Made by a program: the position numbers and the translations under genes. This document shows, one piece after another, positions 6,145 to 17,641 of a stretch of DNA of 22,545 nt. Location: the IMG/VR virus record IMGVR_UViG_2778261065_000029, positions 1 through 22,545 of that record. One strand, 5' to 3'. The notes under the pieces are model-generated. The model was not told where the DNA came from, made no database searches, and worked only from the letters and a program-made list of their open reading frames with translations. This DNA is from a virus (lineage: Duplodnaviria > Heunggongvirae > Uroviricota > Caudoviricetes). Every line of letters begins with the position of its first letter. Position 1 is the first letter of the stretch.

Positions 6145-6729
6145 TTATTGTTTGTTTTTTTCGTTCTGGTTGATGACAAATTCAATGTAACTTTCGATCT
6201 TTGCCTTCTCTGTTTCAGGTAACAATGCGTAGCGCGAGCGGTCATAGTTGATAGTTGCAGGGTCATGCGGATGAATCAGTAGTTCATATCCGTGACGCCC
6301 GAATGCAGATGCAACATTCTCCAGGGTGGAAATGGAAACGCTGACCTCATTGTTTAACAGGCGGCTGATTGTCACCTGGGCGACGCCGGATGCGCGGTGA
6401 AGTTTTCCCTGTGTTGAAAGGTCGCGGCTTTCGCTCATCCAGCGTTCCAGGTTGTGAGCCGCCAGCTGACCAATGTCGCTTGGGCCGACAGGCTGAAAAC
6501 CTTCCTGAGAAAGCGAGCGATCGATATCAAGCCAGTTACGGGGTTTATTGGCGGCAGCTTCAATTTTTCGCGCAACCTGGTCGCCGATAACCTTCTTGCC
6601 AAGAGCCCAGCGGTTTACCAGATTTGCCTGAGTTCCAAGTTTTTCTGCCATCCGCGTCTGAACACCATTGAATTCACGGTCGATCAAGTCGTTGAGATTT
6701 TGCCTGCGGACGTCCTGGATACTTTTCAT
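6145..6729 (-). CDS. CI-like immunity repressor candidate with two HTH motifs and no LexA/S24-type peptidase domain
   Basis: 194-aa ORF divergent from a Cro-like gene across an operator-rich region. HTH-like segments QTRMAEKLGTQANLVNRW and RASGVAQVTISRLLNNEVSVSISTLENVA. No Ala-Gly cleavage site or Ser/Lys dyad context recognisable. Confidence 0.6.
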   Translation of the reverse strand: MKSIQDVRRQNLNDLIDREFNGVQTRMAEKLGTQANLVNRWALGKKVIGDQVARKIEAAANKPRNWLDIDRSLSQEGFQPVGPSDIGQLAAHNLERWMSESRDLSTQGKLHRASGVAQVTISRLLNNEVSVSISTLENVASAFGRHGYELLIHPHDPATINYDRSRYALLPETEKAKIESYIEFVINQNEKNKQ

Positions 6730-7480: not shown

Positions 7481-8272
7481 ATGAGCAGACATGCAACAGA
7501 TTGGGCCTGGGAGACAGATCCAGGCAGCTCATCATTAAAGCTCATACTGCTCTCGATGGCTGACAGAGCCGATGAATATAACCTCTGCTACCCCAGCATA
7601 GAACGCCTCGTTAAAGACACTTGCCTGAATAAAAAAACCGTGCAGGCCGGGCTTATATCGCTCATGAAAATGGGGCTTATTTCAGATACCGGAGAGAGAA
7701 AGGGAGCGACGAAAAGAGTGCGGGTTTTCTCTCTTAATATAACCAAAAACGGGAACATTAAAGGCAACCGGGAAGGGAGTAATGAACCCGAAAACGGAAA
7801 TGTTACCGAAAACGGGAATATACCCAAAAACGGGATGTTGAATGATCCCAAAAACGGGATCCAGAACCAGTCATATAACCAGTCATTTAACCAAGAGAGG
7901 GGGAGCAGGACAAAAACCGGGGATTCTGTGCCTCATGACCCCGGCGCAAACAACGCCGTGATGAATAACTTTGTTCCTCCTGGTGGGCCAGGGCAATTAG
8001 GCAAATTTGTCATGCATGAACAATGGCAACCATCAGATGACTTTCTTCGGAAAAGCTCATTGCAGGGAATCTACCTGGACAGTCTGCCAACGGCACAGGA
8101 ACTTGCAGAGTTCAGAATTTACTGGATGGCTGAGGGTAAGGCATACCATCAGGCACAGTGGGAGCAGAAGCTGGCAAGGCGGCTGCAGATTAGCAGACAG
8201 AAGCAATCAACATTACCTGATAACAACGTTCCGCACTGGAACAGCCCTGAAGCGTGGGAGGATTTCTTGTGA
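7481..8272 (+). CDS. Replication initiator: N-terminal winged-HTH domain fused to a C-terminal DnaT-like domain
   Basis: GGAG ribosome-binding site 7 nt upstream. C-terminal KFVMHEQWQPSDDFL...EFRIYWMAEGKAYHQAQWEQKLARRLQ closely parallels the E. coli DnaT C-terminus as recalled (KFAMYPDWQPDADFI...[27 protein letters not shown]). Central linker is N/G/K-rich repeats. Confidence 0.75.
   Translation: MSRHATDWAWETDPGSSSLKLILLSMADRADEYNLCYPSIERLVKDTCLNKKTVQAGLISLMKMGLISDTGERKGATKRVRVFSLNITKNGNIKGNREGSNEPENGNVTENGNIPKNGMLNDPKNGIQNQSYNQSFNQERGSRTKTGDSVPHDPGANNAVMNNFVPPGGPGQLGKFVMHEQWQPSDDFLRKSSLQGIYLDSLPTAQELAEFRIYWMAEGKAYHQAQWEQKLARRLQISRQKQSTLPDNNVPHWNSPEAWEDFL
7743..7859. repeat. Five iteron-like direct repeats CC(G/C)AAAACGG(G)A inside the initiator gene (candidate origin)
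   Basis: Copies start at about 7743, 7788, 7806, 7823 and 7847, spaced 17-45 bp; they encode the KNGN peptide repeats. Confidence 0.5.
7865..7895. repeat. Tandem 12-bp repeats AACCAGTCAT(A/T)T (two good copies plus a degenerate third)
   Basis: AACCAGTCATAT AACCAGTCATTT AACCAAG... immediately following the iteron block. Confidence 0.45.
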
Positions 8273-11638: not shown

Positions 11639-11760
11639 TGAACAAGTGCAACGCTCTGCTTTATGCCATGGTGATTGGTTTCGGCCTGGCTGCTGGTATC
11701 CGGGTTTATATTGCCTGGGAGTCATTAATCAATCTGGCGTGGAGTGCGATTCGTGGCTAA
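11638..11760 (+). CDS. Small hydrophobic (single-TM-like) protein, 40 aa; not in the supplied track
   Basis: ATG overlaps the upstream TAA (TAATG) with a strong AGGAGG ribosome-binding site. Sequence MNKCNALLYAMVIGFGLAAGIRVYIAWESLINLAWSAIRG. Confidence 0.35.
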   Translation: MNKCNALLYAMVIGFGLAAGIRVYIAWESLINLAWSAIRG

Positions 11761-12091
11761 ATCCCCCGCAGAACGCAAAGCCGCGCAGCGCGCTCGGCAG
11801 TCCGCCGCCGGTGAGCGCAAAATTGAACTGGTGCTGGATAAGCAGGAGCAGGAAATGCTGGAGCGTAACTGTGCCGCCCGTCGCCCTGGTCGTGCGCCGT
11901 ATGAAATGAGCGAATACATCGCGTTACTGATCCGCCAGGATGATGCACGCGTGCGCGGGCGTATAAAATCGATCAGCAGAAAACGTTGCGGTAAGTGCGG
12001 CGAGAGAGTTCCAGTTAATTCATGCCCGTGTAATGGTGACTCGCAATGCTGGGTGACTAAAGGCTGGCATGAAACGAAATTAATAGTGTGA
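11753..12091 (+). CDS. Basic small protein with a C-terminal Cys cluster; candidate late-gene regulator
   Basis: GTG start at 11753 with GGAG 8 nt upstream. Arg/Lys-rich N-terminus (AERKAAQRARQ) and C-terminal CGKCGERVPVNSCPCNGDSQC. It is the last gene before the terminator and terminase module. Confidence 0.45.
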   Translation: MAKSPAERKAAQRARQSAAGERKIELVLDKQEQEMLERNCAARRPGRAPYEMSEYIALLIRQDDARVRGRIKSISRKRCGKCGERVPVNSCPCNGDSQCWVTKGWHETKLIV

Positions 12092-12099
12092 CATGTCAC
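12088..12099. repeat. Perfect 12-bp palindrome GTGACATGTCAC (copy 1), overlapping the stop codon of the preceding gene
   Basis: Exact palindrome; identical copy at 14353-14364 (shared 14-mer TGTGACATGTCACG). Confidence 0.6.
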
Positions 12100-12140
12100 G
12101 AGTAGATTATGCATGATGAATTTGATGGATTTTGAATACT

Positions 12141-12166
12141 GCCGCCAACTATGGCGGCTTTATTTT
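12141..12166 (+). terminator. Intrinsic terminator upstream of the terminase genes
   Basis: Hairpin GCCGCCA-ACTA-TGGCGGC followed by TTTATTTT. Confidence 0.55.
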
Positions 12167-12170
12167 GCAT

Positions 12171-12202
12171 GGTACTATTACCACAACGGTAACTATTACC
12201 AC
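12171..12202. repeat. Direct repeat GGTA(A)CTATTACCAC x2 immediately upstream of the terminase small-subunit start
   Basis: GGTACTATTACCAC (12171-12184) and GGTAACTATTACCAC (12188-12202). The second contains GGTAA-N3-TTACC, the operator half-sites in inverted order. Confidence 0.45.
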
Positions 12203-12209
12203 GGTGGTT

Positions 12210-12806
12210 ATGATGCCTGCTGAACCTAAAACCTATAAACGCAAATCAACGCAATTTAAGCCGCTCACAGCAATGCAGGAGGCTTATTGCCAGTCATACA
12301 TCAAAACGCCTGAAAACCAGACTCAGGCAGCGATTAACGCAGGATTCTCCCCAAACACAGCGGCAGTTAAAGCCAGTGTCATGATGCGCGATGAACGCAT
12401 TCAGAAACGGATTGCCGAGTTGATGGAGGAGCGCAACAAACGAATGCGCGTCAGTGCTGATTACGTTCTCATGCGCCTGGTGGAGATCGACCAGATGGAC
12501 GTGATCGACATCCTCAACGACGATGGGAGCCTTAAACCAATCCGTGAGTGGCCGAAAATCTGGCGCACTACGCTTAGTGGCTTTGATCTGTCGTCGACCA
12601 TCATGAACATGAACGAGGATTCGATAGAGACAATCCTCAAAAAAATTAAATGGCCTGACAAGGTGAAGAACCTTGAGCTGATTGGTAAGCATGTTGATGT
12701 CAACGCGTTCAAAGAACGTCTGGATGTTAATGTGAATGTGACAATTGCTGATCGCATAGCAGCAGCCAGGAAGCGACTCAAAGAACGTCAGGATGGTAAT
12801 CAGTGA
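12210..12806 (+). CDS. Terminase small subunit (Terminase_2-like)
   Basis: Pattern LTAMQEAYCQSYIKTPENQTQAAINAGFSPNTAAVKASVMMRDERIQKRI is typical of small terminase DNA-binding domains. Start placed at ATG 12210 (GGTGG upstream), not the track's 12132 extension. Confidence 0.7.
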   Translation: MMPAEPKTYKRKSTQFKPLTAMQEAYCQSYIKTPENQTQAAINAGFSPNTAAVKASVMMRDERIQKRIAELMEERNKRMRVSADYVLMRLVEIDQMDVIDILNDDGSLKPIREWPKIWRTTLSGFDLSSTIMNMNEDSIETILKKIKWPDKVKNLELIGKHVDVNAFKERLDVNVNVTIADRIAAARKRLKERQDGNQ

Positions 12807-14278
12807 CAGATACAGCGTTATCTCCTGAAGAGCAGTTGATCGAGGATATTGCAGGGTTCACTCACGATCCGCTTGGCTATGCCCTCTATGCGTTCCCGTG
12901 GGGGGAAGAAGGGACTGAACTGGCACATGCTACCGGCCCACGTCAGTGGCAGGCTGATGCGTTCCGAGAGATACGTGATCACCTGCAGAATCCAGCGACG
13001 CGCTATCAGCCGCTTATGCTGGCACGCGCTTCTGGTCACGGTATTGGTAAATCCGCATTCATCTCAATGCTGATCAACTGGGGCATGTCCACTTGCGAGG
13101 ATTGTAAGGTCGTGGTGACCGCCAACACCGACAACCAGCTACGAACGAAGACCTGGCCGGAAATTATCAAGTGGTCGAACCTTGCTATCACGAAAGACTG
13201 GTTTACCTGTACCGCTACCGCGATGTACAGCAATGATCCTGGGCACGACAAGCGGTGGCGAGCTGACGCAATCCCCTGGTCTGAGCACAACACTGAGGCA
13301 TTCGCCGGACTACACAACGAGCGCAAACGCATCATCGTGGTATTCGATGAAGCGTCGAACATTGCGGATCTGGTGTGGGAAGTTGCTGAGGGTGCGCTTA
13401 CGGACGAAGACACTGAGATTATCTGGGTGGCGTTCGGAAACCCTACACGTAACACCGGGCGTTTCCGCGAATGTTTCCGCAAATATAAACACCGCTGGAA
13501 AACTGCGCAGATTGACAGCCGGACGGTGGAAGGCACTAACAAACAGCAGTTGCAGAAATGGGTTGATGACTACGGGGAAGACAGCGACTTCGTTAAAATC
13601 CGTGTGCGCGGCATATTCCCGGATGCATCTGAATTGCAGTTTATCCCTACCGGACTTACTGACGAGGCAATGAAACGGGTGGTAACCGCTGCGCAGGTTG
13701 CACATGCTCCGGTGATAATCGGCGTTGACCCGGCATACTCCGGCGTTGATGACGCTGTGATATACCTGCGGCAGGGGCTGCATAGTAAGGTGCTGTGGAC
13801 CGGCAACAAGACCACTGATGATCTGATTATGGCGAAGCGTATCGCTGACTTTGAAGACCAGTATCAGGCTGACGCGGTGTTCATCGACTTCGGTTACGGT
13901 ACCGGGCTGAAGTCAATCGGTGACGGTTGGGGGCGCACATGGCAACTTGTTCCGTTCGGTGGCGCGTCTACTGACCCGCAGATGCTCAACAAGCGTGGGG
14001 AGATGTTCAACTCATGCAAGACATGGCTGAGGCTGGGCGGCATGCTGGATGACCAGGAAACAGCGGACGACCTGTCGGCGGCAGAGTACAAAGTTCGAGT
14101 GGACGGTAAAATCGTTATCGAACCGAAGGAAGATATCAAGGAGCGGCTTGGGCGTTCGCCGGGTAAAGGCGATGCGCTACTGCTGACGTTTGCGTTCCCT
14201 GTGTCTAAGCGTCTGCGAATTCCCGGGCAGCAGAACCAGCAAGGCAAGGCCATTACAGATTACGATCCCTATGCTTAA
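12803..14278 (+). CDS. Terminase large subunit (ATPase plus nuclease)
   Basis: 491-aa ORF with Walker A-like ARASGHGIGKS, a Walker B-like IIVVFDEAS, and C-terminal acidic nuclease-type motifs (VIIGVDPAYSGVDD, DAVFIDFGYG). GTG start overlaps the small-subunit stop (GTGA). Confidence 0.85.
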   Translation: MTDTALSPEEQLIEDIAGFTHDPLGYALYAFPWGEEGTELAHATGPRQWQADAFREIRDHLQNPATRYQPLMLARASGHGIGKSAFISMLINWGMSTCEDCKVVVTANTDNQLRTKTWPEIIKWSNLAITKDWFTCTATAMYSNDPGHDKRWRADAIPWSEHNTEAFAGLHNERKRIIVVFDEASNIADLVWEVAEGALTDEDTEIIWVAFGNPTRNTGRFRECFRKYKHRWKTAQIDSRTVEGTNKQQLQKWVDDYGEDSDFVKIRVRGIFPDASELQFIPTGLTDEAMKRVVTAAQVAHAPVIIGVDPAYSGVDDAVIYLRQGLHSKVLWTGNKTTDDLIMAKRIADFEDQYQADAVFIDFGYGTGLKSIGDGWGRTWQLVPFGGASTDPQMLNKRGEMFNSCKTWLRLGGMLDDQETADDLSAAEYKVRVDGKIVIEPKEDIKERLGRSPGKGDALLLTFAFPVSKRLRIPGQQNQQGKAITDYDPYA

Positions 14279-14328
14279 TCCGTTAGCGGGGATAATGACG
14301 GAGATATCCTCTGGTGAGGATAAAACAA

Positions 14329-14348
14329 AGCCAGCTCATCGGCTGGCT
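14329..14348. terminator. Bidirectional terminator between the convergent terminase large subunit and the minus-strand ORF
   Basis: Hairpin AGCCAGC-TCATCG-GCTGGCT with T-rich sequence on both flanks (GTTTGT on plus, CTTTGTTTTAT on minus). Confidence 0.5.
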
Positions 14349-14352
14349 GTTT

Positions 14353-14364
14353 GTGACATGTCAC
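14353..14364. repeat. Perfect 12-bp palindrome GTGACATGTCAC (copy 2)
   Basis: Identical to the copy at 12088-12099; lies between the stop of the minus-strand ORF and the terminator hairpin. Confidence 0.6.
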
Positions 14365-14368
14365 GGTG

Positions 14369-14740
14369 TTATTGCTCGCTTAACTTCTGCTTCAGCAAGT
14401 AACCTTCAAGCATCCAGATTTTGTTTACAGCATTCTGCCGGGCAATCTTCCGACCAATTTCCGCATCAAAGTTTTCCGGGCTTGCACAGGCGCTCTCTCC
14501 GGTGACGGTGAAGCCATTGCGCAGCACCAGAACGCAGAACGTCAGCAGAGAAAGTGATTCGTGCGGCTGGTAGTTTACCTCTCCGCCAGTATGTTTCGCT
14601 TTTATGGCTACGCCAAAGATACCATCTTCTGCTGTGAAATATGCCTCCTGAGCAATAATACTCTCGATATGGTCTGGCGTAACGCGCGGCGCGGCTAAAC
14701 CTTTAGCCTGAATTTCAGATTCAATGTCTTTGTCACTCAT
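14369..14740 (-). CDS. Hypothetical protein (123 aa) in a reverse-oriented cargo locus
   Basis: ORF opposite to the flanking terminase and head genes, with AAGGTGAG ribosome-binding site. Weak, unverified recollection of a Gp49/Gp66-like phage family. Confidence 0.55.
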   Translation of the reverse strand: MSDKDIESEIQAKGLAAPRVTPDHIESIIAQEAYFTAEDGIFGVAIKAKHTGGEVNYQPHESLSLLTFCVLVLRNGFTVTGESACASPENFDAEIGRKIARQNAVNKIWMLEGYLLKQKLSEQ

Positions 14741-14943: not shown

Positions 14944-15020
14944 TGGCGTGGCATGCAGGATTCGAACCTGCGACCGACCGCTTAGAAGGCGGTTGCTCTG
15001 TCCAACTGAGCTAATGCCAC
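14944..15020 (-). tRNA. tRNA-Arg (anticodon UCU), argU-like, with encoded CCA
   Basis: Minus-strand 77-nt sequence GTGGCATTAGCTCAGTTGGACAGAGCAACCGCCTTCTAAGCGGTCGGTCGCAGGTTCGAATCCTGCATGCCACGCCA folds as a cloverleaf: 7-bp acceptor stem GTGGCAT/ATGCCAC, D-arm GCTC/GAGC, anticodon stem ACCGC/GCGGT with loop CUUCUAA, T-arm GCAGG-TTCGAAT-CCTGC. Near-identical to E. coli argU apart from stem substitutions (from memory). Confidence 0.85.
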
Positions 15021-17348: not shown

Positions 17349-17641
17349 CAGATTACGAAGACGATCAACTGAAAGAAGAAAACGCCCGTAAGCAACGTGA
17401 CATGGCACAACGTGAAATTGATGACATTCGCTTTGTCATGAGCAGTGAACAGGGGCGTCGCGTTGTCTGGTCTGTGCTGGAGAAAGGCCGGGTGTTTTCC
17501 GCTATCTCTCCGATGGATGCTATGGCAATGGCATTTAATGAGGGGCAACGCAATCTGGCGCTGGAACTGTTTCAGCGCGTTATGGCGCATTGCCCTGAAC
17601 AGTATTTGAAGATGGCCAAAGAGGCCAGTGAACAGGAGTGA
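17345..17641 (+). CDS. Hypothetical protein (98 aa) between portal and scaffold
   Basis: ATG overlaps the portal stop (ATGA); acidic, helical-looking sequence. Confidence 0.5.
   Translation: MTDYEDDQLKEENARKQRDMAQREIDDIRFVMSSEQGRRVVWSVLEKGRVFSAISPMDAMAMAFNEGQRNLALELFQRVMAHCPEQYLKMAKEASEQE

Follow-up and report, generated by a model that had tools for sequence, protein, structure and literature searches.

We describe here a candidate regulator–operator pair in a 22,545-nucleotide stretch of viral DNA (the window; positions 1 to 22,545 of IMG/VR record IMGVR_UViG_2778261065_000029), covering the left two-thirds (22.5 kb) of a phiV10/epsilon15-type prophage (genus Uetakevirus) of E. coli. A perfect 12-bp palindrome, GTGACATGTCAC, occurs twice in the window and once more in the same prophage beyond it, and is very probably the operator of a 112-aa Cys-rich protein, called REG below, whose gene ends inside the first copy. 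GTGACATGTCAC is the form of the site in this lineage; its family-wide form, GTGAC-N2-GTCAC, recurs together with the REG gene in temperate phages of podovirus, siphovirus and myovirus type. Since the sites are transcribed, follow stop codons and lie upstream of terminators, a role at terminators is the best reading of their placement, and we give about even odds to a model in which REG operators at the ends of transcription units gate termination or read-through.

Palindrome copies and their terminators

The elements around the two copies in the window are the following.

11753-12091, plus strand: REG, 112-aa Cys-cluster protein, GTG start
12088-12099: site 1, exact match to GTGACATGTCAC, overlapping the TGA stop of REG
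12100-12140, plus strand: variable cargo slot between site 1 and T1, holding here only an 8-codon remnant open reading frame (ORF)
12141-12166, plus strand: T1, intrinsic terminator from the terminator scan, hairpin GCCGCCAACTATGGCGGC + TTTATTTT (hairpin 12141-12158 with a T run), ending the early-right operon
12170-12209, plus strand: putative promoter of terS with operators, read from the sequence
12213-12806, plus strand: terminase small subunit gene terS
12803-14278, plus strand: terminase large subunit gene, TerL (matches for the terminase pair: Pfam Terminase_2; PHROG 51 and PHROG 2)
14319-14348, minus strand: T2, intrinsic terminator from the terminator scan, AGCCAGCCGATGAGCTGGCT + TTGTTTTATC
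14353-14364: site 2, exact match to GTGACATGTCAC, between T2 and the stop of the minus-strand cargo gene
14369-14740, minus strand: cargo gene of the Gp49/Sf6-gene-66 family (Pfam PF13876, E 2.4e-35)

Sites 1 and 2 share an identical 14-mer, TGTGACATGTCACG, which is the 12-mer with a flanking T and G, and the terminase genes (12213-14278, plus strand) are located between them. Site 1 includes the REG stop codon (TGA, 12089-12091) and lies 41 nt upstream of the plus-strand terminator T1, which is kept in relatives, Klebsiella-type variants included. Site 2 lies 74 nt past the TerL stop (14276-14278), 4 nt from a hairpin (14329-14348) whose T run is on the minus strand, and 4 nt from the stop (14369-14371) of the Gp49-family gene, whose minus-strand transcript runs into site 2 and then into T2; together, T2 and the palindrome stem fold as RNA at -15.5 kcal/mol. 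Followed along transcription, both sites thus present the same order of gene end, palindrome and terminator. The third exact copy (site 3, position 6198 of locus L084, outside the window) follows the last head/tail gene, precedes the tailspike gene and abuts a terminator, AGGCCGCTTTCGCGGCCT-TTTCTTT (T3). A GC-rich hairpin with a T run adjoins each of the three copies; a scan for the intrinsic-terminator consensus is by itself no evidence of function.

The window contains only three perfect 12-bp palindromes, and any 12-bp palindrome occurred twice in just 17 of 2000 first-order Markov simulations (0.85%); the comparative data below make a chance origin of the repeat irrelevant. The initial annotation, made from the letters of the window, had reported the exact repeat, its rarity and the terminator beside each copy, and on these points it stands.

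Imperfect copies were also noted. At 17397-17408, in coding sequence that directly follows the portal gene, stands a one-mismatch copy, GTGACATGGCAC, which phiV10 shares (5306); beyond the window, the holin region contains GTGACGGGTCAC (L084 11463). Both are probably chance occurrences, because epsilon15 has no GTGAC-N2-GTCAC at either equivalent position.

Conservation in close relatives and exchange of cargo

The Salmonella phage epsilon15, about 80% identical in shared genes, carries exactly three perfect copies (39612, 2142 and 19517) at the same three junctions as this prophage, despite diverged flanks, and phiV10 carries two perfect copies and one with a single mismatch, again at these junctions; neither record annotates any of these copies. 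The 12-mer does not vary among 80 IMG/VR relatives, in which the sequence on both sides of it is swapped. In unbiased samples of these close relatives, site 1 is kept in 77 of 80 loci (two of the three exceptions being a truncation of REG and a contig end), site 2 in 55 of 77 (five one-mismatch copies counted) and site 3 in 71 of 78. The view of the initial annotation, that the copies bracket the terminase genes, does not hold as a principle, given the third copy outside the window, the loss of site 2 in 22 of 77 relatives and the placement of sites elsewhere in other phage types.

The variable neighbourhoods take the form of cargo slots. The slot after site 1 is filled in relatives by an ORF of about 70 aa, by a umuD-like gene behind a LexA box, or by other ORFs. 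At site 2, where other genes take the place of the Gp49-family gene, relatives show two versions of the T2 hairpin and no fewer than six kinds of minus-strand cargo gene; upstream of site 3 the gene differs too, with at least three found there. The conserved sites mark the exact edges of these slots, which aids the annotation of morons and defence genes in such prophages.

Traces of this exchange can be read in several loci. The 8-codon ORF of the window (12110-12136, MHDEFDGF*) is a deletion remnant of the ORF of about 70 aa, which ends ...DEFDGL* (...YDEFDGL*), and some relatives (L013, L056) have a similar remnant, MKYEFDGF*, on the minus strand beside site 2. In six loci (L072, L074, L075, L082, L208 and L209) the cargo just after site 1 has its own TTGAC(T/G) -35 element and a LexA box, TACTGT-N8-ACAGTA; such cargo with a LexA box, the umuD-like gene and others, constitutes SOS-controlled morons at the slot. 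In the relative L075, a deletion just after the TerL stop, with its breakpoint at the palindrome centre, has removed the Gp49 gene and fused a GTGACAT half-palindrome to the upstream terminator of the cargo region.

Co-occurrence of the site with the REG gene

A scan with the REG alignment, taking one genome per species, gave 69 loci at 42-86% identity, ranging over the Enterobacterales (Citrobacter, Klebsiella, Pantoea, Erwinia, Xenorhabdus, Providencia, Morganella, Pectobacterium and Serratia). In 44 of the 69 a site lies within about 40 nt of the REG stop, 35 times as the exact 12-mer and nine times with one mismatch. Its register relative to the stop varies (-1/overlapping, +5, +7, +9 and +26, with a double copy at one locus), so that coding constraint cannot account for its presence there. 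These species-level loci hold 60 exact copies of the 12-mer in 0.8 Mb, against 0.05 expected.

The association extends to REG homologues of only 33-45% identity in N15, the Yersinia P2-like phage vB_YenM_56.17 and the Vibrio phage K308, all of which carry GTGAC-N2-GTCAC at or near the stop of the homologue, in one to three copies per genome. The three sites of N15 are identical (GTGACTGGTCAC) and lie across the stop of gene 46, between gene 33 and the repA-operon terminator, and inside repA. In the Yersinia phage, where the REG homologue closes the early operon, GTGACGCGTCAC overlaps the stop of that gene; the three sites of K308 are all intergenic, and one stands 19 nt upstream of terS. The second N15 site (record positions 28550-28561, L360) separates gene 33 from the terminator preceding genes 32-30, the antirepressor gene included, and if REG promotes read-through there, the repA operon would be coupled to antirepressor expression.

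Both the spacing and the half-sites are strictly defined. In three locus sets, about 2.5 Mb of REG- or site-bearing loci, the half-sites occur with N2 spacing 128, 73 and 144 times against about one expected, whereas N1 and N3 give 0 and any other spacing at most three; shuffled half-sites, used as controls, gave 0-3 copies. Lambda, which lacks REG, was also searched for GTGAC-N2-GTCAC and has none. Mismatched copies differ almost solely at the two central bases, the half-sites being fixed, which on sequence grounds is the pattern of a dimer operator. Because the half-sites never change, REG and its site offer co-occurrence only, not covariation.

As judged from these comparisons, the site tracks REG and not the terminase. 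A symmetric site co-inherited with the gene of a predicted DNA-binding protein is one of the marks of a pair of ribbon-helix-helix (RHH) regulator and dyad operator, and we infer that REG binds it. The initial annotation had proposed a regulator-binding site with the Cys-cluster protein as a candidate binder; with the site following the end of REG across Enterobacterales, N15, P2-like and Vibrio phages, and with the RHH fold predicted for REG, this protein now appears the best candidate.

The REG family and its predicted fold

Searches of Pfam and the PDB with phmmer and hmmsearch gave no match to REG, whose family has neither a Pfam model nor a solved structure; the only sequence match is PHROG 536, 'transcriptional regulator', and the family is small (186 clusters at 50% identity). 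A literature search for the motif and for REG found no paper with the motif in a relevant context and none treating REG. An AlphaFold model built from a shallow alignment was poor (pLDDT 62) and its Foldseek result meaningless, a problem solved by a deeper alignment of 58 sequences, which yielded a confident model (pLDDT 91). This model matches RHH DNA binders and has the beta-strand/helix/helix arrangement of that fold. In the model, a basic helix opens REG at its N-terminus (AERKAAQRARQ, the most conserved part of the protein), and the RHH core, a long helix and, at the C-terminus, the Cys cluster come after it. A comparison with MatP by hhalign was not significant.

Terminators and operon position

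Of 73 sites in the species-level set, 21 are followed by an intrinsic terminator that begins no more than 45 nt downstream, in the terminator's own direction, compared with 2.0% of random positions. This 15-fold enrichment makes the proposed link with terminators statistically real. Site and terminator are typically 1-5, 12-13 or 19-24 nt apart, and terminator hairpins from different lineages bear no relation to one another. Time and again the early (replication) operon has REG as its last gene or one of its late genes, with the site and the operon terminator coming after it in that order; this is so in Uetakeviruses, in Xenorhabdus and Pantoea prophages and in the P2-like phage.

A different arrangement is found in lambdoid phages of the YdaT type, where REG lies in the nin region. 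One site is located inside the cII-like gene ydaT, where it is conserved at synonymous positions and encodes R-D-M-S, and a second lies 5-6 kb to the left, just past a stop codon in the early-left operon, so that the two flank the immunity region. In two such prophages (L278 and L259), a ribosome-site/start context, AAGAGGCAAGACCAATGCT(T/A)AGA, follows both the left-arm site and the ydaT stop; given this shared context, each of the two sites may be followed by a small gene starting MLR..., the two genes being related.

A model of operator function and its alternatives

In the mechanism that we favour, REG would be made late in the early-right operon and its dimer would bind the two GTGAC half-sites. 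One operator would be built into the 3' end of the REG gene itself and the others placed at distal unit ends, one behind the cargo gene that neighbours TerL and one, beyond the window, behind the final head/tail gene. Each would stand upstream of an intrinsic terminator, in that terminator's own direction, and bound REG would decide whether RNA polymerase stops there or reads through. We infer, with modest confidence, that the control is of read-through rather than of stopping, because a factor site just ahead of a terminator serves antitermination well but would be superfluous for a roadblock, and because Uetakeviruses have no other known late regulator; to our knowledge no late-gene regulator has been described for epsilon15/phiV10-type phages, and our searches brought up none. 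REG would then be a delayed-early switch that extends transcription across unit boundaries, from the early operon into the packaging genes and from the head/tail genes into the tailspike and lysis genes.

Several observations weigh against this model. The spacing from site 1 to its terminator varies from 22 to more than 300 nt. Site 2 precedes a terminator only for the minus-strand cargo transcript, so that read-through there would give RNA antisense to terL, and its loss from 29% of close relatives marks it as dispensable. The sites of the YdaT-type phages, inside ydaT and in the early-left operon, are not beside terminators; these phages also possess a Q-like gene, and some keep their sites without REG at the usual slot, an uninformative comparison since the phages concerned are nearly identical. 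The known roles of RHH proteins are those of repressor, partition protein or architectural protein, and no RHH antiterminator is known to us. Moreover, sequence features suggest that terS has a promoter of its own with CI-type operators just after T1, in which case the late genes may not need read-through. An extended -10 element, TGGTACTAT (12170-12178), stands right after T1 and upstream of terS, the form TG-N-TAYTAT being conserved in E. coli and Klebsiella-type relatives, and a second dyad motif, TTACC-N5-GGTAA (12178-12192), overlaps it, with a degenerate second copy at 12196.

That dyad occurs seven times (6011, 6073, 6785, 9092, 9154, 12178, with the degenerate copy at 12196, and 15343). 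It flanks the repressor gene and also stands just downstream of the terminators at the starts of later units (nin-like genes, terS and gp3), and equivalent positions in the epsilon15 record are annotated as repressor-binding sites. From this placement, transcription units seem to begin with a TTACC-N5-GGTAA operator and, in the late region, to end with GTGACATGTCAC and a terminator.

The same operator could serve the opposite purpose, bound REG stopping the polymerase or blocking convergent or antisense transcription in a delayed-early turn-off. Repression is the typical function of RHH proteins; at sites 2 and 3 genes converge; early operons could be shut down from the sites within ydaT and N15 repA, which are near operon starts; and the downstream units seem to have operator-controlled promoters of their own. 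We nevertheless think such a roadblock, repressor or insulator unlikely: it would be redundant immediately upstream of an efficient intrinsic terminator, it would cut off the tailspike and lysis genes at site 3 unless their own promoters suffice, and no promoter is consistently associated with the site. Still less probable is an element acting as RNA, in which a transcribed, nut-like hairpin would tether REG, by its N-terminal arginine-rich helix, to RNA polymerase for processive antitermination as with lambda N and boxB. The hairpin has only 4-5 bp and -2.9 kcal/mol, no better than shuffled sequence (z -0.18); its stem bases never covary across very distant phages but are invariant, only the two central bases varying; no boxA lies near the sites, Rfam detects only the tRNA and nothing at the palindrome, and the fold predicted for REG is a DNA-binding one. 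These points stand against the location of the sites in transcribed regions, after stop codons and before terminators, the nutL/nutR-like layout of one site per early operon in the YdaT-type phages, and the conserved basic N-terminus of REG, all of which an RNA element would fit.

An architectural role, in which REG would pair the few sites of a genome, as MatP does with matS, and thereby fold phage DNA into loops or otherwise organise it in the service of packaging, replication or segregation, would make the proximity to terminators incidental. The half-sites are indeed those of matS (13 bp, GTGACRNYGTCAC, with a 3-bp spacer), genomes carry one to three sites, and the predicted long helix and C-terminal domain of REG could mediate oligomerisation; yet in many phages there is one site only, the profile comparison with MatP falls short of significance, and bridging would leave both the 15-fold enrichment upstream of terminators and the position after stop codons unexplained, which makes it very unlikely in our view. 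The palindrome as a passive module-boundary linker for the recombination of cargo and modules, the other possibility raised initially, is the most improbable of all. Part of that proposal fits, namely the mosaic flanks at all three sites, where different cargo abuts the palindrome, and the mid-palindrome endpoint of the L075 deletion. A linker, however, needs neither perfect dyad symmetry nor a fixed 2-bp spacer, and would not be expected to stay invariant across phage families, inside the coding sequence of ydaT and repA, and alongside REG in phages of unrelated architecture. Conserved islands may favour the exchange of cargo, as a side effect at most. The variant in which a host factor (CRP, MatP or SlmA) occupies the site fares no better, for reasons of site structure given next.

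Several specific identities for the palindrome were tried and rejected. Host CRP, which the initial annotation had named for a binding assay, is set aside: CRP needs TGTGA-N6-TCACA, and the palindrome, read in these terms as TGTGA-CATG-TCAC, has N4, with no spacing other than its own enriched. A matS site would need an N3 spacer in place of the 2 bp found, and zero N3 sites occur in the three locus sets; a SlmA site differs in its inner four bases. A genome end (pac/cos) was suggested by the phiV10 record, which starts in the palindrome only because it was cut at the stop of the last gene; other records start elsewhere. GTGACA resembles the -35 element TTGACA, and a scan gave GTGACA-18-CATGAT as a possible Q-type promoter, but the -10 region is replaced in relatives. 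An antisense promoter match in Providencia ydaT is not conserved in Xenorhabdus.

Other features of the prophage

The prophage is integrated beside guaA, and the remaining features of the window are these.

1-1251: integrase
minus strand: early-left genes
6145-6729, minus strand: CI-like repressor
early-right operon: DnaT-like and P-like replication genes, nin-like genes
14944-15020, minus strand: tRNA-Arg(TCT)
after the minus-strand insert: portal and head/tail genes

Between terL and the portal module, the tRNA-Arg(TCT) and Gp49-family genes form an insert on the minus strand. Terminator-like hairpins accompany it at 14900-14865 and 14780-14765, and upstream it is preceded by an operator-like site and by a match resembling a promoter (15386-15357). 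About five direct repeats of 18-24 nt, AATNNNCCNAAAACGGG, lie at 7735-7860 within the DnaT-like replication gene (7481-8272); they resemble origin iterons within an initiator gene, as in lambda O.

Significance and comparison with known systems

Phages of the epsilon15/phiV10 type are common E. coli and Salmonella prophages and serotype converters. The pair described here, a 12-bp site, a 112-aa protein with a confident fold model and three terminators, is testable, and since it recurs in N15, P2-like, lambdoid and Vibrio phages, findings on it would carry over from one phage family to another. Should the pair prove to gate terminators, the few antitermination systems of phages would gain a new mechanism, and the synthetic control of termination a compact part.

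The closest parallel in layout is lambda Q with qut and tR', where the regulator gene likewise sits at the distal end of the early-right operon, followed by its own DNA site and by an intrinsic terminator before the late genes, regulator and site being inherited as one module. The differences are these: no promoter is conserved around the palindrome, so that a promoter-embedded site and a sigma-dependent pause are both absent; REG, an RHH protein by its predicted fold, does not match Q in sequence; a genome may have several sites, of which some are inside genes; and both the lambdoid locus L259, with a Q-like gene, and N15, with an annotated Q, carry REG as well. With lambda N and nut the pair shares short dyad sites after a stop codon and before terminators, a basic N-terminus of the regulator and, in YdaT-type phages, one site per early operon on either side of the immunity region. 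It departs from them in lacking boxA, in its marginal hairpin, in invariant half-sites without stem covariation and in the DNA-binding fold predicted for REG, which is encoded far downstream and not first in its operon. The MatP/matS system of the E. coli Ter macrodomain has identical inverted GTGAC half-sites, an RHH-containing binder and few sites per replicon, but its spacer is 3 bp instead of 2, and REG has a Cys cluster in place of MatP's four-helix bundle.

The fold, the dyad operator and the genetic linkage of operator and regulator gene are also those of the RHH repressors of phages and plasmids (Arc, Mnt, CopG, AmrZ and antitoxins), whose operators overlap promoters at the 5' end of the unit they regulate, whereas the probable operators of REG lie at gene 3' ends, upstream of terminators. 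More ambitiously, and as a doubtful proposal for now, REG and GTGAC-N2-GTCAC could form a new class of antitermination that relies on an RHH protein and a DNA site. In function this would be one more 'Q-like' solution, with loading directly ahead of intrinsic terminators and not at a promoter; it would act as the early-to-late switch of epsilon15/phiV10-type podoviruses and would have spread as a gene-plus-site cassette to lambdoid, N15-like, P2-like and Vibrio phages. What we have is a new, probable regulator–operator pair of a familiar kind, an RHH protein with a dyad site, in an unusual placement at gene 3' ends beside terminators.

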